From Vezdaea acicularis (lineage: Eukaryota), in the NCBI GenBank assembly GCA_026025075.1, contig JAPEUI010000011.1, positions 124,001-188,000 on the forward strand: DNA of 64,000 nt. Direction: 5' to 3'. The first letter of the stretch is position 1. Each line of letters starts with the position of its first letter. Shown here piece by piece: positions 2,871 through 60,222 of the stretch. The translations under genes were made by a program, and so were the position numbers. A model generated the notes under the pieces. The model was not told the origin of the DNA and did no database searches. It saw nothing but the letters and a program-made list of their open reading frames with translations.

Positions 2871-5800
2871 TGAGGATGTAGGGTGGGCAGTCTATTAGCG
2901 AAGAGGGTGGGGCACCCAAAAGAACGGAATGGGAGGGACCGGGGGCACGGTAAAGGAACGGGGAAAGGCAAAAAGAATCGAATTGTCGAAAGAACCCGTC
3001 GCGATGCTGCTGCGGTGCCGGGGTCTTACGCATGCGGCGACCTGCCCTGAGATCGAGCAGGCTGAAACGGGAGTTGTTCCCCAGTCAAGGCACTTCCCAT
3101 CGAGGAGCGGTCTGCAGCGTCGCCGGCATCAGTGGGCGTGAACGCGCGCTGCCCCCTCCATCTTCAGCCCAGCTGGCTGGATCGCAGCGCCTGATACCTC
3201 CGGTGGCTGCAGGGCGGCTCGTCATTCAACGGGAGACAGGGACGGGGTGGCGGCGGAGAGGAAAGCGGACGGAGGGTGGAGAGCGAGGTAGATGGAGCGG
3301 AGTTCCGCCGAGAGGAGATGATCAGGTACGCGCACAGGCGGGGCGGATGTGGAGCTGACGAAAGAGCATGGGGAATGAACAGCCCACGCCTTTTCCGGGG
3401 CTGACCAGACCCCTCCCCCCCCTCCCCCCACGCGCCCTTTTCTTTCCCGTTTCTTTTCTCCTGCTTTCCCTTTACTTTGCCTTTGCTTTCCTTGGCTGGC
3501 CCTTTTCGTTCCCACCTCCTGCTCGTCCTGGCCGCCACCTCCCTCCTCTGGATCCTAACAAGCGCGGACGGCATAGGGCGATAGAGGGCGTGATGGGCCT
3601 GCAACTCGACACGAGACTACGTCCGATTAGACGCAGTGGGGAGGCGGGACGGGCAAATGTTTCCACCGGAGGGATTATCAAATATCAAGGAGCCAAGAGA
3701 GCTGAAAAGGGAAAGGGAACGCGAGGGTTTCCCCCGCCAAGCTCGGGCCCGCGTCAACATTGCGCGAGGTGGCTTCTCCCTCTCCTTCTGGCTTTCCCAG
3801 TCGGGAAAGACCCGGCCAAGCCACTGATCCAGCCTGGTGGGTGGAGGGACCGGTCCCGAGAGGGAAGGCGCAGCGTGCGTGCCTTGTCATCATCGCCGCA
3901 TCCTGTCCCATAAGGAGCGTTCGAGACCCCCGCCGCCCGCCCGCCGCTTCACGGCAGGGGCGACGGCGGGCGCTGATGGTAACGGCAGTTTCGAGAGCTC
4001 CTCGGATCGACGACGCCCTCGCCGTGTCCCCTGCACCCGTCCGGGATCCCGTCGAGGGCAAGCGCCGCGTGTTCGGGACTGGTCGTGGAGGTGAAGGGGC
4101 CCGGCGCGTCGAGAGGGTTCCGCCCCGGCCATCCTGCCGCCGAACACATGGGGTTCCGCCATGCGGGAGCAACGTGGGAGCCGCTCAGCACCGTGCCATG
4201 GCGGACTGAGCCGGAGATGCACGGAGCCGAAGCAGCCGCCAACGCCGCCTCCTCTTTCCACAAATGTCGACTGGGGATATCCGCGATCCCCCCTACCGGG
4301 CCATGGTGATGCCGATGTCTTATGCAAAGGGATATTTTCACCAGAAACGTCTCCGGCGCTCCGACCGTTGGCCTGCCTCTCCCGCCTTTCCACCGGTCGA
4401 GAACTTGGGTGCGGTCGAGCGGACGATCGGGGACCTCAGAGCTGCAAAGATTGGCCGCCCGTCCGCTGCAACGGTTGAGGAGAGAAGTATCGCCGAGGAT
4501 GTACCGTATACCTTTCAACGACCAGCGCGCGTGGTTGCACCGCAGAGTGACTCGACCTTTCCCCATCGCCGCGGGAGATCGTCTTCTTGGGGTCGCCCCA
4601 AGTATCTGCCCGAGGGTCGTCCTAGTCATGCGCCAGCTCCTCCGACGGTCGAAGCCCCTTGTGCGTTTATCGGAGCTGCATAAGGCCCGCCCAGATGTGG
4701 CATAGCGCACGGTCGACGCCACATCCAGATGACTTGCCCGGAGTGGGTGTCGGGAGCTCACATGGGTTAGTCGTTGTCGCAAAACTCGTGGATGCCTTAT
4801 TTACGCGAGTGAAAATCTTTCGGAGCCACTCGCGGCCAAATACAAGATCGGGAAGCTGGTCGGACTCCCATCCCTGAGGATCGTCCATCCCAAACCAGGA
4901 ATTCAGCAATGATCACCTGTAGAGAGTAGATATACTCAAAAGAAGGAAAACAAAATCTGTTCGACTGGCCACTTTGGTGTGTATCTGTGCCCAACATGCA
5001 ACCTCGACGTCGTACTCAGTACAATCGAGAGGCGTGATGTGCAGGGTGCCTTCGTGACGACAGGCAGCCGCGCCAAACCTTATTCGGGCGGTAAGGAGGC
5101 CGAGCCCGAGCCAACGTGCACCCTGTTCACGTTGATCTCGAGGTGACGGGCAATCCGCAAGAGGGGGATACGGCGATCAAGCCAAGGTGATTGCACAATT
5201 CTGGTCTCGTCAGCCACTCTAAGTCCATTTGAAGACGGAAGCGCGTCGACTCGCCCCGTCGCCATTCGTCCTCCGAGAGAGCTGGGCCGATGAAGGGGCG
5301 GGGACTTCAAGCCAGACACCTTCGTATTCCTTGCCGTGAAACGTTGGAGGCGCTTCGCCGGATGATTTGATATCATTCGAAAGCTACACATCGAAAGCAA
5401 ATGGGGCTCGATGAGGTTTGGGTCGTGAAAAACTTTGCGTACTATGGCGCCCTTCTAGAACAATTTTAGCGAGAAAGTAATCTAGGCTCTGGTACCACCA
5501 GCACGGCCTGGACCAAGATGCGTCAGGCGCTCTGGCTCACATCAGTTTCGATGCTTACATAACAAGCAAGGAACCTCGTCAACCTTGTCACTTCAGGGTT
5601 AGTTCACGACCGGCATGTGTTCTTGGACGCAGGGTTCGTTTGATCATGCTCAATTGTTCGTTGTCCAGCGGCGGTGACTTTGGGTGGCGTCCCGAAACCA
5701 TGGATCGACCGCTGAGCTAGACAGGGGTTTAGCTCTGCATTAGGGGCAAAAAGGGCTAGCCCTTTAACGGCAGCTCCCCCGAAAAGGTCACCCGAATGAG

Positions 5801-6413: not shown

Positions 6414-9400
6414 TTAGACGCGTTCTAGAACGGCCTTCACAGAGGAAGCCCGCTCCATCGCAAGCCATGCTTCCTTGACTTGATGCTTTCGGGCCGCGAG
6501 CTCTTCGCTTTGAAGGCCGCCACGCACCATCAAGCCAGAATACGTCTCTAAGAGTACCGCACGTTTCATGCGAAATGTCTCAACGCCATCGCCGAGCTCT
6601 GAGATGAGTTCCAAGTATCCCTGCGAGGCCTTTTCCGCCTCGACAGTGGCAAACAAGCCTTTTGTGACTATCTGTTCCAATCTTCCAAATACTTCTTGGA
6701 CACCTTCACAAACGGCTAGTTGTACGACTGTTGCTCCGGCTGCATTCGCTGGTCTAGTAAGCTCCAGTGATTGGGAAATTCGCTTGAAGAGGTCTTCAGG
6801 AACATCTGAGTCAGCGGCTAAACTTGTCGTGTGAATCAGCCGTACATACCTGGGCTTGGTATCCGAATTGATCGATGCAATGCAAGCAATGCATTTGCAA
6901 TTGTGATGGATTTCCTGTTGGCGTACTTTAGCTCAGCCTGCTTCCATGCACGCGGTTCCAGGTAAAGAGAGAATTGCAAGATTAAGCGAGTGCACGTAGC
7001 GCTCAGCAAGGTCGCGAGAGAATATGAGAAGTAAACCGGAAGGATTTGTTGCTTACATAGATTTAGATGAGGCCTCTCCCGAAACAGTGGAGTCAATATC
7101 CATTTCCTCACTAGCGGCTGAAAGTTCATGCAACAGCTTCGAGACGACGGCTTGAACGTCCGTAAAGAGATCAAGTTCGCATGATAACGCAAACTGGCCC
7201 AAGCTTACAAGGGCATGCCGTCGATAAATGACGTTGTTTCGCTTGCTTTCACGAAGTATTATCTTAGATAGTTAGCAAGGCTTGAGTCAGTTTTGCAGTA
7301 TTCCGAATAAGACTTGGTCTTTGCATACCTTCTTCATCTCCGCGTCTATCTCAGGCTTACTATCTAGAAGTTTTTTCCCCCTCTTCCTGAATTCCACGAA
7401 AGCTTCTAGTACACGCTCCTTTCCTTCCCAAGTCTTGCCACTAATGGCCCCTTCGAGGGCACGGTAGATTATCTCGCCGTCCTCGACACTCAATTGACCA
7501 GCTGAGAAGGACATTTGTTAGAGTCTGACGTTATGTGCTAAGGCCTTTCCTGGGCTTACCTGAGGATGAGGCTATCTCGGCAATACTTAGGGCTGATGTA
7601 TGTTTTATAACCCACCGAGGCGAATCAAGTTGCTTCTCGGCTAGAGCGACGATCTCCTTGAGGTATAGTGAGATTGCTCGAGACCCTCCAACATTCTCAT
7701 TCCACGTGCTCTCAAAGATTTCTTTCACAGGTTCGGAGGAATCGTGTTTCGCGACGAAGACGAAAGGGAGAAAATCGACTGCTACGGCTGCAAATCGATC
7801 TGGCGAACTATATTGTTGTAAGGAATTAATGCAAAATGCTGATATGCAATTCTTGCTTACTATTTAGCGATTGCGTATACGATTTCACCAGAAACAATCC
7901 TATGCTTCTCATCTATATTCCATAGTGTCAACATAGAAACCTCAGTCAGACTCAGGTTTGAGTGTGATACATACCTTCCGCCTCAAAGTATAGACGTTCG
8001 GCAAACTTTGCCACAGTAAGAATTGCATTTTCAGAAGCTAGGCGTGCTAAATAGCCTGCTGCGGTCGCATAAGAGGAGGATATTGTCTCATTTCGATCAA
8101 GTACAGCCCTTTCCACCGACTTCAAGAACTGGTCTGCGTATGATCTGAAGAGGAAGTTGTGGCGTGTTGACAGACTCACAAGGACTCGACTACAGCCAAC
8201 CTAATTGAGAATTAGCCTGCATGCTTGTAGATAAATTCAGAAGTTACATCTTGCCTTTGAAGGCATCCCAACAGTTTGTTTGATGGAGCTCTCAAGGCGT
8301 GGGATGAATCTCTCCATAGTTGGTTGATCTAACAGGTCAAGGCACTTTTCGATAGCTTCCATCATGGGAGAGCTTCGAACACTCTTCAGGCGTTCAGCAT
8401 CAATCTAGAGGAAACATGTTAGGCCGAATTTTGAATCCAGCTTCTGCACTCACCTTTTCTTCTGTCAAATTATATTTAGATGCGTTCAAGTGGAGATAAT
8501 TTATAGCTTGAGGCTCTAGCGAGCTTAGCATACCCAGTAATCGTTCGATGAGATCTGGAATGAATGGACGCAAGGCTGAGCCAGCCTCCTTGATAAGATC
8601 CAATAAAGTTGTTAAAGAGAACAACTGAACGTCCTCTGCTGAAGCTTCTAACTGCGATTGCAGGAACGGCATGACTTTATTTAGCATATTCTCCGACCTC
8701 TTCGAAGACGATCCAGTCTTGACTATCCGTACCAGAGACGCGGACAAGATTTGACACAGCTTCATTGCCGCTTTCCGAACTGAATCCTTGATATCGTCTA
8801 GAACTTTGAAGCCCAGAGTCCAAATCCGGTTAAGGTATTTCTCGTATTTTTCAAGTGCTCTCCCCTGAACCAAATCAGCGATCGCAGCACAGCTAGCCTG
8901 CCTCATTCTCCACTCTTTTCCTAGAATTGTTCGAAGAAGATCCTCCATGATTTCACTAAAATATCTCTCGATGATTTCGTTTGGGTCCTTCACAAGGGCG
9001 GTCCAGATCTCATTCATCGACCTGCGGACGTTACTGTTGGGGTCGAATCGATATCGAAAGAGGCTCGAGTAAAGTTTTGGGTTCTGAAAAAGATATCCGT
9101 TCACGTCAGAGTCCGCTAAGATATTACCCAGCCCAAAATTTGCCAACGCAGCCCTGCTCGTCCAAATGGCATTGTTCGCAGCGAGCGACATGAACTTATA
9201 TACCAAGCTCGGGTCTCCGACCTCTGAGGCAAGGGACATGATATCTTGATACGTTGAGATAGAACCGTCTCCTGTTGGAAGAGCACCGGGAGCGAAAAGC
9301 TCTGATTCTCGTGTGACTGTCCCAGAAAGATTGGCACTGGTTCCCGTAAACGTTCCTACAAGGTCGCGTACGAGGTCTTCCTTAAGCTCTCTATCGCCCC

Positions 9401-43453: not shown

Positions 43454-45300
43454 ATGCCCCCACTATCCTCGATACTCTGTATCAACGCAAGACTTCAATT
43501 TGGTACAAGGGCAAGCTTCCGGATTCTCCACAGCAGTCTCGTGCCCCAATGGAACCAGACTCGCGGCAGAGGTCTCGCGAGCGTAGCGCCGAGTAAGAAA
43601 CCGTACTATATAACGACACCCATTTTCTATGTCAACGCCGGTACGTGGGCCACTTCCGGGATATCTGTAATCATCCATGAGTGGCAAATATGTTGACTGG
43701 GAACTAGATCCTCATGTCGGCCATCTCTATACTCTTGTCCTAACAGATGTCTTGAAGAGATGGCAGGTCCTATGCGGCAAGGAGGCCATCCTTTGCACGG
43801 GCACGGACGAACACGGCATGAAAATACAACAAGCTGCGGCGAGGGCAAAGACTGATCCAAAGACTTTTTGCGACAAAGGCGCGGAGACCTTCAAGGATCT
43901 AGCTAGAAGGATAGAGATCTCTAATGATCATTTTGTTAGAACAACAGATTCGGATCACCGAGATGCTGTCCAACATGTTTGGCATCTTCTCCAGGAGCGC
44001 GGCTACATATATCAGTCGAAGCATGAGGGTTGGTACTCAATAAGTGATGAGGCATTCTATCCCAAGTCTGCGGTTCACCTGATTGTGGACCCTCCCACTG
44101 GACGCAAGATAATGGTGTCCATCGAGACCGGGAAAGAAGTCGAATGGACTTCTGAAACGAACTATCATTTTAGATTGTCTGCATTCAAGGACAAGCTACT
44201 AGACTTCTACCAACAGAATCCGACATTTATAGTACCGCAAGCGCGCCACACAGCGATAGTAAAAGCAGTAGAATCTGGGCTGGATGATCTGTCCGTTTCA
44301 CGCCCAGCTGAGAGGTTGTCTTGGGGAATACCTGTGCCTGGCGATGAGAGCCAGATGATCTACGTCTGGCTTGACGCTCTGATAAACTACATCACAAAGG
44401 CAGGCTTCCCCTGGGCACCTGGGAAAGAGAGTATGGGCGGCTGGCCCGCTGACTGCCACGTTATCGGAAAGGATATCACAAGGTTTCATTGCATATACTG
44501 GCCGGCCTTCTTGTTGGCACTTGACATACCACCTCCCCGCCAGATCCTCACTCACGCACATTGGACTCTAGGCCATAGGAAGATGTCAAAATCTACTGGA
44601 AACGTCGTCAACCCATTCTTCGCACTTGATCGCTTTGGCGTTGATACAATGAGATTCTATCTGATTCATGATGGAGGCTTAATGGACGATTCAGACTATG
44701 GGAATGAATTCATCATTCGTGCGTATAAGAAGAGCCTCCAGGGCTCACTTGGCAACCTTTCGAGTAGAATTACCAGAACGAAACAGTGGAGTGTTAGAAA
44801 GGCTGTCCAGACGAAAGACTCAACGAGCTCAGATCTCGATGACCAAAGAATGCGCGAGCTCATTACAGAACTCCCCAACCTCGTTTGTGAGAAGATGGAG
44901 AAGCTGAACCCCGGTGCCGCCTTGAAGGATATAATGTCCTTGACTTATAAGGTAACCTTTGGTTGGCTCGCTGCTTGTGTTAAATAGTGGCTAACTATAT
45001 TAGACGAATGCGTACATAACAACTACAACTCCCTGGAGCATGGTCAAGCAGGGCCATGAGCAGCGAGCTAATCAAATTGTCTTCCTTGCCGCAGAGAGCT
45101 TGAGAGTAACTGGCATCCTTCTTCAGCCGTACATGCCCGAGAGGGCGGCATTCCTTCTTGACGTGCTCGGTGTCGATCCATCGCGGCGAACCTTTGATGA
45201 CGCGAAGTTTGGCCTGGATAAGGATTTTGGGGAGAGTAGGATACCGATCGAGAAAGGAGAGAATGGGATGATGTTCCCTCCCTTATACAGTGAAGTGTAG
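43454..45300 (+). CDS. MSM1: Mitochondrial methionyl-tRNA synthetase
   Basis: Arg/Ser/Leu-rich presequence, YITTPIFYVNA|DPHVGH (HIGH), GTDEHGMKI, YVWLDAL, IGKDI.RFH and KMSKS. Introns ~43641-43708 and ~44952-45003. Confidence 0.95.
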
Positions 45301-45445
45301 AATTCGTTCCTCTGTACCAATAGAATGTATCATATCATCTGAGAGTGGCTAGCCATCCCTTGGCATCAGTTCAGTAGCACCTCAACTTCTAATAAACTCA
45401 CCTTACTTTCAATTTTCAACCTCCAGTCAAGTTTTCTAAAGCTTA

Positions 45446-45578
45446 GATCACGAAGGTGATCGAAGAGTCGCCTACATATCAAGCCTCAGCGTGAGATATT
45501 GGCAACCCCCCCGAGCACTGCTCGGAGCCCACCAACGCAACCGCGTTATTATTCGCAGTTGCGCTGATGGATGGTTGT
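45446..45578 (-). ncRNA. Candidate small structured ncRNA (four contiguous hairpins) with upstream TATA box
   Basis: Stems 45570-45554/45545-45529 (17 bp), 45527-45520/45516-45509, 45508-45501/45472-45465 and 45461-45456/45451-45446; G-U pairs favour the minus strand. TATATAA at 45627-45621 followed by a pyrimidine tract. Confidence 0.55.
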
Positions 45579-46072
45579 GGAGGAGAAAAGAAGGGAAGAA
45601 GTCAGGGAAAGAGTGGGGGGTTATATAGGCAGAAGTCTGGCGCTAGTGGCGCACGTGCTGTTCATTCACTGTATGCATAGCTATATGGAAACTCCCTTAG
45701 CTTAGCTGAGTGAATGCGGAGAAGCAATACGTACACGTGCCATCATATGAGTTTCATGGTCTGTTTAGGTGATGCTATGTTTTATTCTGAGCTTGAAGCA
45801 TTTGCCAAAGATCACTCAGCCCCGTAACGCCCCTCTCCCCAGCCTCGACTTCCAAATACAATGCAATACTTCTGAGCCATCCTCGAAGAAGCCGCCTTCC
45901 TCTTACCTTAACCTCAGCTCATCCAATCAAAGCGGATGCGAAACATCTGCTGTGAAACTTCTCAGAAGTCTAACCAATCACCTCTACTAGAGAAGCAAGC
46001 GAAGTAGCAAGTTCAGATCAACAAGATCTGTGAACAGATAAACCGAACGAAAGTTCCTTCGTCTCCCAGCAA

Positions 46073-47148
46073 TTACGCGGCGGCAGCGACTATAAGGGTC
46101 TTTCGATAATTCCAGTAATTGGCCCGAACTGGGTCGTAAGTATCCGCTAACAAAGTCAATGCTTTGATGGCATCCTCTTTCTTACCATCCTCTTCAGCAT
46201 AAATCTCTGCGAGGATGTCGAGAGCATGGGAGGATTTGACATTATCAGGGCTGTCAAGGGGGGCAAACTGCTGAGCAAACTCCTTGATCTCGCTCAATGG
46301 AATCCGCGCCTTCCCTAAGACTCTGTTTCACGGTCAGCGTTTAGTCTGCGGGCATAAGATCATGCGTACGCACCCTCGAAGGTAGTTCCAAGGGCTCTGG
46401 TTCTGTGGAGCTTGGAATATAGCAGTCTTGATGTACCTATCGATAGGCTAGCATAAGTATTATATGATATGATATCACATTGATCAGAATATCCTTACTC
46501 AATTTCTTTATCAATCGTCTCTTGGCTCGGCGGAGTATCTCTTGCGAAAAGAATAAAGAACCTGTGATTCCACGCCGAGTTATTCCGCACATCTTTGCGC
46601 AAGAGCTCGTCAACATCAGGCATTTCCGTATCCCAGAGATTATATTTGCGGACGAGCCATTGCCGATACGACCACACATGATAATTTTTCGAGTCCTCTT
46701 CAAACATTTCCATGATGAATTCCCTCTCGCCTGTCGGATCTCCCAGCCGCTCCATTAGCAGCTGACGATGATGCCAAATCTGGTAATTCTTTAGGTTGAG
46801 CAAAGCGATATTGTTTAGCCACTGGATTTCCGCTCGCAGATCACTATCTAGACTGAAAAGAGTCTGGGCTCGGTATAACCAGACGGTATAGTGTGCGGCG
46901 TTCATCCCCACCAAATGGGCGGTCAGCTCCAAAACTCTCTCCGAATGCTCATCCTTTGCCATGACTGCTCGCAAGTAGTCCATAGCGTCAGTATATTCCT
47001 CTGTATAAGCTATGGCAGACAATGGGTTGGGCCCGCCATCATCTTGGGGTAGAGGTATAATGTCCGCCCATTTTGGATCCGCGTGGTACGGGATTTGTCT
47101 CGCAATGCGTTTAGCCTTGCCTTTCTTCACCATGGTTGAGGATGCCAT
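46073..47148 (-). CDS. RAM2: Protein farnesyltransferase/geranylgeranyltransferase-I alpha subunit
   Basis: PPTA repeats: AHYTVWLYR, KNYQIWHHR, KNYHVWSYRQW, RNNSAWNHR, QNQSPWNYLRG; C-terminal DPVRANYWNY. Two introns. Confidence 0.95.
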
Positions 47149-47504
47149 CGTGTATTCAGCCCGAGATTGAGAAACGAGTTACTGGGCAGATTCCCTTCGT
47201 TGGAGATCTCCAGGTTCGCGATTTCTACAGCATGTTCCCGAGTTTAGATGGGTTTATAAGGCAGAGTCGCTCGGACTGTTCGCTTTGATAAAGCAGGACA
47301 ATAGTAATTTCGGACAAAGCCTAAGCTTTGCAACTTTTATGCAGGGCTTATTGGCCTTTGAGATACATTGCATGAAAATTTCTGTAAGATAAGTTCTTGT
47401 TATTATTTAGTACAACTATGATACACTCTAGAATTATTTGTAACAGCCCTGGACCTGCCCCAATGATATGCGCTCTAAAACTGAAGGAATTGACGAGGGG
47501 GGAT

Positions 47505-49172
47505 CTAAGGTCGCCAGAATTTCCAACCTTCCCTTTTTTTCGTGACTCCGACTCCAACTCCAACTAGTTGCTCTAAGGCGGTATTATCTTTCGCCTTCAG
47601 AAACTTCTCTTGGTCAATCTCCTCCCCCCCCTCTTCATCAGACCCGTTCTTCAGCACCGCCGGCATTAAAACTCCGACCCCATCGCCACCTAATGTTGTC
47701 TCGTATCTTTCGAAGTTCTCTGCATCAAGTTTTCTTTCGAGCTCTCTCAATGTTGAAGATTTGATTTCGGGTTTTAACATTGTGATAGCACACCCACCAC
47801 CACCAGCCCCTGTCAATTTGGTCCACCCAATGCCGGCATGATCCACGAGCTCACGAATACGGTCGAGCCTTGGATGAGAGACACCAAGGGATACGAGGAG
47901 CCCATGGTTGATTCTAATAAGCTCTCCCAAGTGCCGTAGGGTTGCAGGATCCATTTTGTCGAATGTTGGTGACCGGATAAGCTCATGAGCAGACTCGGTA
48001 ACCTTATCGATAGAGGAAAGCATCATTTCTGTGACAATCGGATGAGCTTGCTTCAGCGCGCCTACGCGCGCAACCTCAACTGCGGTGGAGCGCGACTGTC
48101 TCGTGTTTACGAGAAGTAGTGGCAGTTCAGGGAAATTTCGCAAAGGAGTAACGGCCGGGGGCTTGTTATAATCTTTTCGTTTGAAAACCACAGCCTTGCC
48201 CCCCGATGACACTGTATTGTCGACGCCACTCGGGTTTCCATGTATACACATTTCTCCAACAAAAGCCCACCTATTGATGCGCTCAAGTTGGAGTTCGGCC
48301 TCGTTTGAAGGTTGATCAGGATGTGGACCAGCCAATATCCGGATTTGTAGAAGCAGGGCTGCGCTCAGACACACGCTGATGCTAGCGCTGCTTCCTAAGC
48401 CTGCGCCAATTGGTATCGTGGACCGCAAGGTGTATATACATGCAGGGCAGTTGTGCGATCCCAAGCTAAGGAAAAGATATAGAAAGGCTGACGCAGCGGC
48501 TTGGTGTATTTTCCTCGTCTCTTCCGGAGCATCTAATGAAACCGTCGAGATATGAGGTTTCATTGCAGCAACCAGGTCTGGATCGAGACTTGAAACCAAA
48601 TCATAGTAGTACTTCTTCTTGGACGGATGTGCGAATGTATCCCAAGGTAGAGAATCGATATTCCAAGTGTGGTCCAGTGAGATGTCAGGAAACCTTAGAG
48701 TGACAGTTCGCCGCGATTTTGATAAAGAAGTTACAAGAAGATAGGACCGGAGAGAGATTGCAGCAGCTATTGCAGCCTATGCCGTTATTCAGTCAGCTTT
48801 TAGACAGCATCAGGTACAGGAAAGGGTGAAAGTTACCTTCCCATAAACGACGGCATGCTCACCGTAGACAATGACTTTGCCAGGCGCAGACACCATGAAA
48901 GCCGGCATCATTGGTGAGGAGTTTCTCCGGTCCAGGTGTGTCTTTGGCCGAGTTGTTGCAGTATTCATCTCTTTCAGACCATTGACGTGAACCTGCTGAT
49001 GAGTGCCATTGGTAATCCCTTCTGCTCCAACCATATTATCAATGTTCGCAGAGACACTGGACGGCCTTTCAGAAAACGTTCCTACCATCGTCATTGTTCC
49101 AAAAGCATGTCTTTGGCAGCTTGTGACAATGACGGAAATAGTCGTATGGTTATGGGACGATATCGTAGGCAA
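47505..49172 (-). CDS. ERG12: Mevalonate kinase
   Basis: SAPGKVIVYGEHAVVYGK|AAIAA, PIGAGLGSSAS (GHMP ATP loop), HGNPSGVDN and KLTGAGGGGC. Intron ~48836-48777. The true start may be a downstream ATG (~49094 or 49088). Confidence 0.96.
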
Positions 49173-58401: not shown

Positions 58402-60222
58402 TCATCCGGGCGATAAGCCTCGTGGAGTGACCGGTAAAGACTTATTTGTTGTTAGAGCGACTGGCAGCGACATTTGCCCAGAGCTCTCTCGAAGGATTTC
58501 GGTCGTCTCTGGCTCATGCATGGCATATCGTGATTGTGGGGGGCAAGTTGTAAGACTAGTGCGTACGCTGGAAAACTCGCGTGCGTAGTCTGGTCGTGCA
58601 TTGCGCATCAACGGGATGTGTCTTGCTGATACATCTCGCACGGAAGGGACATGCTGAAGATCGTATTGTCTATCAAAGTCACGATAAGGGTCCTGGAACG
58701 CAACCACGCGTTGAACACTCTTTGGCTCATTTCGTGAGACAGGCTCGGTTTTAACATGCTGTGTTGTGATGTTTGTTAAGGGTTGTCTCATTGAAGAAGG
58801 TTCGTCAAGACTTACTAGATCCGTCCTTATATGTACGCTGTGCTTCGGATAGTCATCTTCACTGCTGCTAGAACCATTACTAGCCTGCTTCGAGTGCAAG
58901 CTATTTCCTTTGCCAGCAGAGAAAGCTGATGACCTAGTCCCTTCGAATGCAGAAGGGGTATGAGACCCAAACCTCACATGTTTGTTACGCCCCCTAGAAT
59001 GCTCGGGTTGATCACCAGATGCGTAGCCACGGCCATATCCACCAGAGCTGTAGGATCCGTTTGCCCTAGTAAACAGTGCTTTGAAGCTAGCAAGCGAACA
59101 TACGATGACGGCTGTGAAAAATGATAATAATTAATAGAGTCCGGTGAGGTGAAGGCCTCAAGTTCAGAGGAAGACGGCTTACCAACAGAGGACTCAATGG
59201 CTGACCAGGTGGCCAACCATGTAGGCTCAGGATGTGTTCCGGTAGTGTTTGTAACGATGACTCGAATGATCGCGAATACGATGATGATGATCCCCAGCGA
59301 GAATATACCTGCTAGAGCCCATTTTCTATTTAACAATCAGCACTATTTTCATGTAGAAAATTTGACGAAGGCTGCTCACTGTCGAGGGGTAATCTTCACC
59401 TTCCACAAGAGATGGATCGGCAACGCAATGACTACGTAATATTGAGTATAATTTTTATGGGATAGATTTGTACAAAGTCATACTCATCATATCGGAAAGG
59501 ACATCGACGCTAGTGGAAAGCTTCAGACTGAGAAGTGAAAGGTCCACGTTGCGCTTCGTACTGCACGCTCCTGTTTTGAATAAGTACTTTGTTAAGGTGG
59601 CTCAGACAGTTTTCACCTACCAAGGACAAATGAAGAACATGATATCGGATAGCTAATAACACACCTTCTTTGCTGTCAGCGTTGTCGGTACAGTTGGTGG
59701 TTTTGTGGATAGGGGCTTACCCTATGTAAGATAAGATCACAAATCCGAGCACAAACCACCAAGCGTATTGTTGACCTGACAGGCCAGAGCTCAGTCTTCG
59801 AAAGAAGGCCAAGAAAGAGAGTTTGACTGTCCAAAGAACGGACCAGAACAGCAGCGTCAGGGCAAACTGGAGCTTGAGGTACAGGCTGGCAACGGCCAGA
59901 AAATCCTCCTTAGGTGGCTGCAACCCCGAGGCAACCCTTACTATAGTGAACATCGGCATAATACAGTACTGATAGGTGACTGCAGAAGCCACTAGCAAAA
60001 ACAGGGCCACAAGGACCAGAATGTCGTCCGAGTATATGCGCCCAAACATTCGTACGCGAATGGCCATGCGAGCCACGGTAAAAAACACTGCGAACGCTGC
60101 TCCAGCCCAGACCACACCCTTGGAGAAGGAATTAGTCTTGTGCAAAATTCATGCGCGCAAACATCGAGGCATACCTCGAGTGTGCGCTCGGTCACGGTTG
60201 GCGGACGCTCGGTTGAAGCCAT
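58402..60222 (-). CDS. PTH11-like/fungal rhodopsin-domain integral membrane protein
   Basis: ARMAIRVRMFGRIYSDDILV, LWTVKLSFLAFFRRL, D.LSDM, ALPIHLLWKVKI, GIFSLGIIIIVFAIIRV and WSAIESSVAVIV motifs. Several short introns; Ser-rich tail ends at TGA 58402. Confidence 0.88.

Follow-up and report, generated by a model that had tools for sequence, protein, structure and literature searches.

A single-copy cluster of four hairpins following promoter-type motifs in a Vezdaea acicularis intergenic spacer: a candidate orphan non-coding RNA gene

Introduction

Stable hairpins in non-coding sequence have been described in several systems, and we set these beside a four-hairpin element on the minus strand of a 64,000-nucleotide (nt) stretch of Vezdaea acicularis DNA (GenBank assembly GCA_026025075.1, contig JAPEUI010000011.1, positions 124,001 to 188,000; this whole stretch is called the window hereafter). 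The element lies between genes resembling MSM1 and RAM2, and a first-pass annotation, made from the sequence alone, had proposed it as an independently transcribed small structured RNA. Among described fungal RNAs, Rfam includes curated Aspergillus fumigatus 'Afu' families of small non-coding RNA (ncRNA).

The best-described fungal hairpins with a role at gene ends are substrates of ribonuclease III (RNase III). As reported in the relevant parts of a fission yeast study (PMC8421224), Pac1 cleaves nascent stem-loops and so gives rise to poly(A)-independent termination at small nuclear RNA (snRNA) genes, some small nucleolar RNA (snoRNA) genes and some protein-coding genes, with a further role in processing the 5′-leader hairpins of box C/D snoRNA precursors. 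The substrates described there are helices of at least 20 nt in which bulges are tolerated; beside snRNA genes, stems of 23-32 nt with loops of 3-5 nt are predicted. For the start of transcription, the corresponding parts of a study on moulds (PMC9703631) describe a core promoter in which a TATA box is followed by a pyrimidine-rich region reaching to the start site; both parts matter in mutational tests, and in the Aspergillus nidulans transcriptome pyrimidines are enriched just upstream of start sites.

Two further systems concern how stable folds arise and spread. Fungal introner-like elements, in what their report (PMC3609843) says of them at this point, exceed normal introns in length, and their predicted structures are unusually stable and kept by compensatory changes. 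Template switching, according to the portions of two reports that deal with it (bioRxiv 10.1101/2021.04.15.439925; PMC10710096), creates perfect stems in one step.

Results

RNAfold places four abutting, near-perfect hairpins on the minus strand between 45571 and 45446 (approximately 126 nt), so that all four stems of the first-pass annotation were reproduced. The element is single copy, follows promoter-type motifs in canonical order, lacks an open reading frame (ORF) and matches no known RNA family. Its parts are:

45528-45571, minus strand: hairpin 1, 18 base pairs (bp), 4 of them G-U, loop AAUAAUAA.
45509-45527, minus strand: hairpin 2, 8 bp (CUCCGAGC/GCUCGGGG), 1 of them G-U, loop AGU; a natural variant at 45511 lies in the 3′ arm.
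45465-45508, minus strand: hairpin 3, a composite stem in which 8 outer bp enclose an inner helix able to pair in two registers; the minimum free energy (MFE) fold has 17 pairs, 3 of them G-U, and the loop is UGAG.
45446-45461, minus strand: hairpin 4, GAUCAC-CUUC-GUGAUC, 6 bp, loop CUUC; palindromic and equal on both strands.

Two details were refined relative to the earlier description. The first stem, given there as 17 bp, is present, and RNAfold adds a closing U-G pair to make 18 bp; for hairpin 3, the composite stem is upheld, with an inner register that is ambiguous between the MFE fold and the AUAUC/GAUAU pairing proposed at first.

The structure exceeds chance expectation. The minus strand of 45580-45440 has an MFE of -70.0 kcal/mol, compared to -42.3 +/- 3.8 kcal/mol for shuffled sequences (z = -7.32), and none of 200 dinucleotide shuffles folds as well. 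In a folding scan of the window (140-nt windows, step 20, both strands, correction for guanine-cytosine (GC) content), the element ranks first of 6,388 folds after GC correction (-31.9 kcal/mol, -4.63 standard deviations (sd)) and fourth by raw energy. For comparison with other genomes we used the best 80 of 288 confirmed metagenome loci, found with the large MSM1 exon and distant from the window (methionyl-tRNA synthetase 49-73% identical). Across 857,332 bases on both strands, hairpin 1 is the sole uninterrupted stem of at least 17 bp with a loop of 3-12 nt, barring a TA/TG microsatellite in one of these loci (L019). The structure is also sharply bounded, since the 160 nt past hairpin 4 fold worse than their shuffles (z = +1.45).

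The fold is specific to one strand. Eight of the 49 pairs in the MFE fold are G-U, one of them hinging on the ambiguous inner register of hairpin 3, and there is no A-C opposition within the helices; this agrees with the earlier count of at least six G-U pairs formed on this strand only. Under a model of a strand-symmetric DNA palindrome, in which both kinds of mismatch are equally expected, the asymmetry gives a two-sided binomial value of 0.008. With RNA parameters, the minus strand folds at -70.0 kcal/mol and the plus strand at -49.2 kcal/mol (z = -3.17 for plus), a gap of 20.8 kcal/mol, whereas with DNA parameters the strands have -33.1 and -28.3 kcal/mol and the gap is only 4.8 kcal/mol. 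Taken with the G-U bias, this difference between RNA and DNA parameters suggests that the sequence has been shaped to pair as RNA in the minus direction, or has mutated under transcription.

Upstream of the hairpins, two CACGTG motifs, TATATAA and a pyrimidine tract follow one another in canonical order within 165 nt of the minus strand:

45734-45739, no strand assigned: distal CACGTG, an E-box type palindrome and putative upstream promoter element, 82 nt from the proximal copy.
45652-45657, no strand assigned: proximal CACGTG, approximately 25 nt upstream of the TATA box.
45621-45627, minus strand: TATATAA, putative TATA box, one of 8 copies in the window (both strands); abuts the pyrimidine tract.
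45576-45623, minus strand: pyrimidine (CT) tract of 48 nt with >=40 pyrimidines in 45; the window has 5 tracts of this kind (both strands); predicted start at or just past its 3′ end.

Of the 9 CACGTG sites in the 64 kb, 2 are thus found here. The pyrimidine tract ends four bases before hairpin 1 and, going by the mould design of TATA box plus pyrimidine tract (as set out in the pertinent parts of PMC9703631), the predicted start falls at the foot of hairpin 1. The other pyrimidine tracts of the window, inspected for a local promoter style, showed no clear pattern. All motifs named in the first-pass annotation (CACGTG, TATATAA, the pyrimidine tract, ACAACCA and the four hairpins) are at the positions that it gave, including the TATA box of its own that it assigned to the element (45627-45621), which indeed stands in a promoter-type layout. 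On the minus strand downstream, the longest ATG ORF before the MSM1 coding region has 16 amino acids, in keeping with the claim that the element has no ORF. The element combines a promoter-type architecture with the lack of an ORF; a generic ncRNA gene of RNA polymerase II (Pol II) would have both and also a discrete transcript. One further feature may belong to a longer transcript:

45349-45401, minus strand: possible 53-nt intron, GUGAGU ... CUGAU ... AG; a weak candidate downstream of the hairpins, with size and signals resembling those of the MSM1 and RAM2 introns.

The element belongs to no described family among those tested. Rfam 15 (4,227 models) gives no match at gathering threshold in the whole window. 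At E <=10, region 45100-46000 has three unrelated matches of 16.4, 15.1 and 15.0 bits, compared to thresholds of 47, 81 and 39; there is hence no family match at or near threshold, in line with the unknown class that the first-pass annotation inferred. No tRNA was found. A box C/D snoRNA, which has a C box near the 5′ end, a D box (CUGA) near the 3′ end and a short terminal stem, was rejected, as the minus strand from 45640 to 45200 has no C box (RUGAUGA) within one mismatch and its four CUGA motifs are without a partner. A box H/ACA snoRNA is defined by a hairpin, an H box (ANANNA), a second hairpin and an ACA 3 nt from the 3′ end, with an internal pocket in each hairpin. Here, hairpins 1, 2 and 4 are uninterrupted and have no pseudouridylation pockets, and no ACA follows hairpin 4, the ACA sites nearest to the hairpins being at 45578 and 45328. 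As for Sm-class snRNAs, neither the Sm site RAU(3-6)GR nor its loose form AU(3-6)G occurs in 45640-45250, and the signature motifs of U1, U2, U5 and U6 are likewise absent from it, all searched in their consensus forms. The earlier statement that the hallmarks of known classes are lacking thus stands for Rfam families, tRNA, the U1, U2, U5 and U6 motifs and the Sm site.

A gene of RNA polymerase III (of the type of U6, RNase P/MRP, signal recognition particle RNA or a short interspersed element (SINE)) is unlikely, because the sole run of at least four T on the minus strand of 45000-45700 is TTTT at 45589, in the leader upstream of the hairpins, and no oligo-T terminator follows them. Telomerase RNA, which needs a template of approximately 1.5 telomere repeats, was rejected as well: a single 6-nt permutation of the repeat (UAACCC) overlaps the TATA box and is not extended, in a test that assumes TTAGGG repeats. 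A solo long terminal repeat (LTR), a miniature inverted-repeat transposable element (MITE) or a foldback element would show terminal inverted repeats, a target-site duplication and further copies; a search of 45250-46100 for TG...CA elements that end in inverted repeats and are flanked by a target duplication of 4-6 bp gave 0 hits. An introner-like element does not fit a single-copy, intergenic sequence that has no GU...AG at its ends on the folding strand.

Among sequencing runs, 6 DNA-type runs from 3 studies contain the locus and no RNA run does; copy number was judged from contigs of such runs, from the window and from the 80 loci. In run X1, where the organism is present at approximately ten-fold word depth, one 3,358-nt contig spans the stretch, and none of the other contigs (4.4 million in total) matches any part of it at >=80% likeness. 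A covariance model of the element (R1; a single sequence of 134 positions and 49 pairs, run with default filters, so that analogues alike in structure only could be missed) recovers from the 857,332 bases just two matches, the element (163.4 bits) and the reverse strand of hairpin 1 (17.2 bits); the hairpin 1 arm occurs once in the window, and the element has no second copy there or in the 80 loci. Exact patterns for the hairpin 1 arms have no match in collections of genome contigs and viral contigs, neither of which includes fungi. The many genomic copies that would point to a MITE or SINE are therefore not seen in the window, the 80 loci or run X1.

In the air-metagenome run X5, the sole contig on the 1.4-kb stretch has 184 nt (45521-45704, 1 difference, word depth 6.2) and covers the TATA box, the pyrimidine tract and hairpin 1 but nothing of the flanking genes. 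This contig probably reflects patchy low coverage of the same species. Run X6 contains a relative that is approximately 92-98% identical in the neighbouring parts.

The element lies in fungal nuclear DNA with introns of approximately 55 nt and CTRAC branch points, inside a 770-bp spacer that separates two converging stop codons. The flanking features are:

45004-45300, plus strand: last exon of the MSM1-like methionyl-tRNA synthetase gene, stop codon 45298-45300, PF19303; aligns in nearly all relative loci.
46073-46327, minus strand: last exon of the RAM2-like prenyltransferase alpha subunit gene; PF01239 repeats on the upstream exon (Pfam).
45391-45396, plus strand: AATAAA, probable MSM1 poly(A) signal, 93 nt past the MSM1 stop and before hairpin 4; the sole plus-strand AATAAA in 45000-46300.
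45781-45786, minus strand: AATAAA, probable RAM2 poly(A) signal, 287 nt past the RAM2 stop and before the distal CACGTG; the sole minus-strand AATAAA in 45000-46300.

Pfam assigns the first product to class I methionyl-tRNA synthetases (PF09334 plus the anticodon-binding PF19303) and the second to prenyltransferase alpha subunits, so that the names MSM1 and RAM2 used from the start are reasonable. Since the AATAAA on each strand falls between the stop of its gene and the hairpin unit, neither neighbouring mRNA needs to include the latter. With 14 and 15 copies of AATAAA per strand in the 64 kb, these positions are consistent with such a reading and are not significant on their own.

Upstream of the RAM2-like gene, Pfam identifies a GHMP (mevalonate-type) kinase gene. 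The mevalonate-kinase-like and prenyltransferase alpha-subunit genes, both of isoprenoid metabolism, are adjacent and co-oriented at 46073-48776 (minus strand); the same order of kinase and prenyltransferase is found at the edge of locus L004 (1-1701), and in locus L065 both genes are present approximately 7 kb apart on opposite strands.

Two other regions of the window fold strongly. The second strongest GC-corrected structure outside the element is at 58510-58690 on the plus strand (-2.96 sd; -67.4 kcal/mol, z = -3.57). In it, a long stem closes over two internal hairpins, and Rfam gives no match; it may be coding, since it overlaps a stop-to-stop ORF of 242 amino acids on the minus strand. 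By raw energy, the most stable folds on either strand of the window come from a GC-rich block (66-74% GC) at 3760-4260.

Discussion

The element is real and statistically exceptional, and its layout reads like the anatomy of a small orphan ncRNA gene. Our leading hypothesis, which we hold tentatively and not as a finding, and which falls somewhat short of an even chance, is that it is a lineage-restricted, independent Pol II unit on the minus strand, producing either a small RNA or a structured 5′ domain antisense to MSM1. The two CACGTG motifs, TATATAA and the 48-nt pyrimidine tract would then form the promoter, with transcription starting where the tract ends or just beyond it (approximately 45585-45572). 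The nascent RNA would fold in the order of its synthesis into the four local hairpins from 45571 to 45446. As no long-range pairing is needed, the fold would be compact, largely double-stranded and likely nuclease-resistant. The product would be non-coding. It could be a stable RNA of approximately 126-140 nt that acts in trans, binds protein and is mostly double-stranded, or else a longer antisense transcript that extends into the MSM1 3′ end, may be spliced and has the hairpins as its structured 5′ exon; we divide our confidence about equally between these two forms.

A bolder extension, which we regard as unlikely, is that a lineage-specific Pol II RNA gene born de novo, its product made up almost wholly of four consecutive perfect hairpins and lacking an Sm site, snoRNA boxes and junctions, represents a new class of fungal structured small RNA. 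Such an RNA could, for example, be a double-stranded RNA mimic that binds or titrates RNase III or a protein with a double-stranded RNA-binding domain, or a multi-hairpin precursor of small RNAs, and its gene may set a boundary between the converging housekeeping genes.

Several observations weigh against an independent RNA unit. For such a unit we infer transcription, both RNA ends, the polymerase and any function. Past hairpin 4, there is no 3′-end signal of any known type, and the helices are almost without the internal loops and junctions that functional RNAs use for recognition. In contigs from two runs of a single study, a C>T variant (plus strand) at 45511 replaces a C-G pair of hairpin 2 with C-A. 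The 134-nt RNA has this 1 polymorphism and the other 1,267 nt have 3 substitutions and 1 indel, so that variants are no rarer in the RNA; no constraint is detectable, with counts that are too low to carry weight.

The 80 relatives add to these points. RAM2 is found in 3 of the loci (L004, where it is partial, L064 and L065) and converges on MSM1 in none, so that the MSM1-RAM2 interval is not conserved. Searches of the 80 loci with blastn and nhmmer, using both the interval and the RNA, gave nothing beyond chance (best blastn E 0.041 over 33 nt), and covariance model R1 has no match among them at E <=10. Of the loci, 61 extend at least 500 nt past MSM1, and none of these has a comparable structure within 900 nt; their best fold reaches -3.85 sd, in a stretch of 72% GC, compared to -4.51 sd for the window on the same scale. 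No comparable structure follows RAM2 in the two loci with a complete copy. What the first-pass annotation had proposed is thus borne out for structure, strand, promoter motifs and the lack of ORF and family, and finds no conservation in the 80 relatives. The comparison across the MSM1-RAM2 interval that it had suggested was carried out, with no match and no shared interval, in relatives that are too distant for covariation. Absence at such a distance indicates no more than that the element is not ancient or not syntenic, and does not address selection.

A full fold scan of the 80 loci (793 kb; 39,194 folds, step 40) speaks for the structure and also yields the last point on this side. The window element reaches -4.37 sd on this scale, and only one element, shared by loci L031 and L033, exceeds it, the next locus having -3.87 sd. 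The L031/L033 element is a plain DNA palindrome, so that strong folding in these genomes does not by itself make an RNA gene.

In it, three short hairpins follow a near-perfect inverted repeat of 35 bp (L031, 10900-11110; the same in L033 at approximately 8880-9060). It folds at -110.6 and -110.1 kcal/mol on its two strands (z about -10 and -8.7), and lies between diverging COQ10-like and methyltransferase-like ORFs. Most likely, it represents a palindrome of foldback type or template-switch origin within a promoter region that the two ORFs share. With a TATA-like box, a leader, and one long and three short hairpins, it was considered as an analogue and rejected for being strand-symmetric, in contrast to the strand-biased four-part structure of the window. 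A second candidate analogue, at 4159-4020 of L059, was rejected as lying within apparent coding sequence. Locus L043 (8511-8550, minus strand) has an almost perfect palindromic hairpin of 16 bp with 1 G-U pair and an 8-nt loop, the arms of which contain CACGTG.

Among the rival explanations, neutral palindromic DNA survives best, and even so we consider it improbable. The hairpins would be an unselected by-product of template switching or local inverted duplication, would not be made into a functional RNA, and would stand beside promoter motifs that are incidental or drive only cryptic transcription. The one-step formation of perfect stems reported in the parts of the template-switching studies cited above (10.1101/2021.04.15.439925; PMC10710096) suits this explanation, as do stems that are nearly perfect and without the internal loops typical of old functional RNAs, the comparably stable, strand-symmetric intergenic palindrome of L031/L033, the lack of detectable conservation in the 80 relatives, and a single polymorphism that breaks a pair. 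However, four separate abutting hairpins would take several independent events within 126 nt, and the structure starts where the TATA and pyrimidine-tract promoter ends. Neutral decay should moreover mostly disrupt pairing, whereas every one of the 8 non-Watson-Crick pairs is G-U on the minus strand, with no A-C among them. Even the polymorphic allele still folds into four hairpins (-65.1 compared to -70.0 kcal/mol), refolding by a register shift that the G-run in hairpin 2 allows.

Quite unlikely is an element acting on RAM2 read-through, in which RNase III cleavage (Pac1/Rnt1-type) would give a 5′-3′ exonuclease entry and Pol II would stop before reaching MSM1. The hairpins are indeed on the RAM2 sense strand, 500-630 nt past the stop and between converging genes. 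However, the probable RAM2 AATAAA is 215 nt upstream of them, with the complete promoter-like block in between, and the 2 relatives in which RAM2 is complete lack a strong structure downstream of it. The signal recognised by Rnt1 is an AGNN tetraloop, and none of the four loops is one. Termination of the Pac1 type is known in fission yeast, but with an 18-bp longest stem and an 8-nt loop the window element is shorter than the Pac1 substrates described in the parts of PMC8421224 that bear on them; stacking on hairpin 2 could extend the helix towards the 20-nt criterion.

A plus-strand element of the MSM1 transcript, e.g., a 3′-untranslated region or termination structure, is highly improbable. 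The cluster does start 146 nt past the MSM1 stop, and the plus strand folds better than its shuffles (z as given above), but in this orientation the 8 G-U pairs become A-C mismatches at a cost of 20.8 kcal/mol, the plus-strand AATAAA precedes the cluster, and the 900 nt past MSM1 contain no comparable structure in any of the 61 relatives.

LTRs carry TATA boxes and structured R regions, which makes a decayed mobile or multiplying element with its own promoter (introner-like, MITE, foldback or solo LTR) worth a mention. Despite this and the stable folds of fungal introner-like elements, as described in part of their report (PMC3609843), such an origin has very little chance and is already largely refuted by the single copy (run X1 at >=80% likeness, window and 80 loci), the position outside genes without splice signals at the ends on the folding strand, the 0 LTR-type signatures in 45250-46100, and four local hairpins in place of one long terminal inverted repeat.

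If the element is transcribed, it would be an unusually clean orphan structured RNA gene in a filamentous fungus, of which promoter, start and fold can be read from sequence. In a converging spacer of 770 bp, any transcription matters to both neighbours. It may also serve as a model for the birth of RNA genes from hairpin-forming DNA and for the ending of short Pol II transcripts in fungi without Nrd1-Nab3-Sen1. If not, it warns that near-perfect hairpins can arise beside promoter-like motifs in fungal spacers by mutation alone.

How, then, does an independent RNA unit compare with the systems described so far? The filamentous-fungal ncRNA families of Rfam are likewise candidate small ncRNAs outside coding genes, but the window matches none of them at gathering score. 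Sm-class snRNAs such as U1 (four stem-loops, Pol II, approximately 150 nt) are alike in size, in a Pol II-type promoter and in stem-loops that follow a short single-stranded 5′ end; unlike in U1, the hairpins here abut linearly without a four-way junction, there is no Sm site, and no Rfam snRNA matches at E 10. The RNase III hairpins of fungal snRNA and snoRNA genes, as far as the parts of PMC8421224 on these genes describe them, share a Pol II unit without an ORF and a stable hairpin, formed by RNA of one strand, near the transcript start or past the mature RNA. The window element differs from them in having no C/D, H/ACA or Sm motif, an 18-bp stem below the 20-nt minimum, a larger loop, and four hairpins.

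The introner-like elements of Dothideomycetes, going by what is said of them in portions of PMC3609843, are also fungal non-coding sequences of approximately 100-150 nt with exceptionally low folding energy, but they are intragenic and bear splice signals, with near-identical copies that number in the tens to hundreds, whereas the window element is intergenic and single copy. Template-switch hairpins, which include de novo microRNA genes, resemble it in their near-perfect, young-looking stems without detectable homologues and offer a plausible route of origin; those described in the parts of the two reports that treat them (10.1101/2021.04.15.439925; PMC10710096) are single, however, while here there are four, without evidence of a source sequence. 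The G-U bias suggests, in contrast to such hairpins, that the changes following stem formation at this locus preserved the pairing of RNA from one strand.

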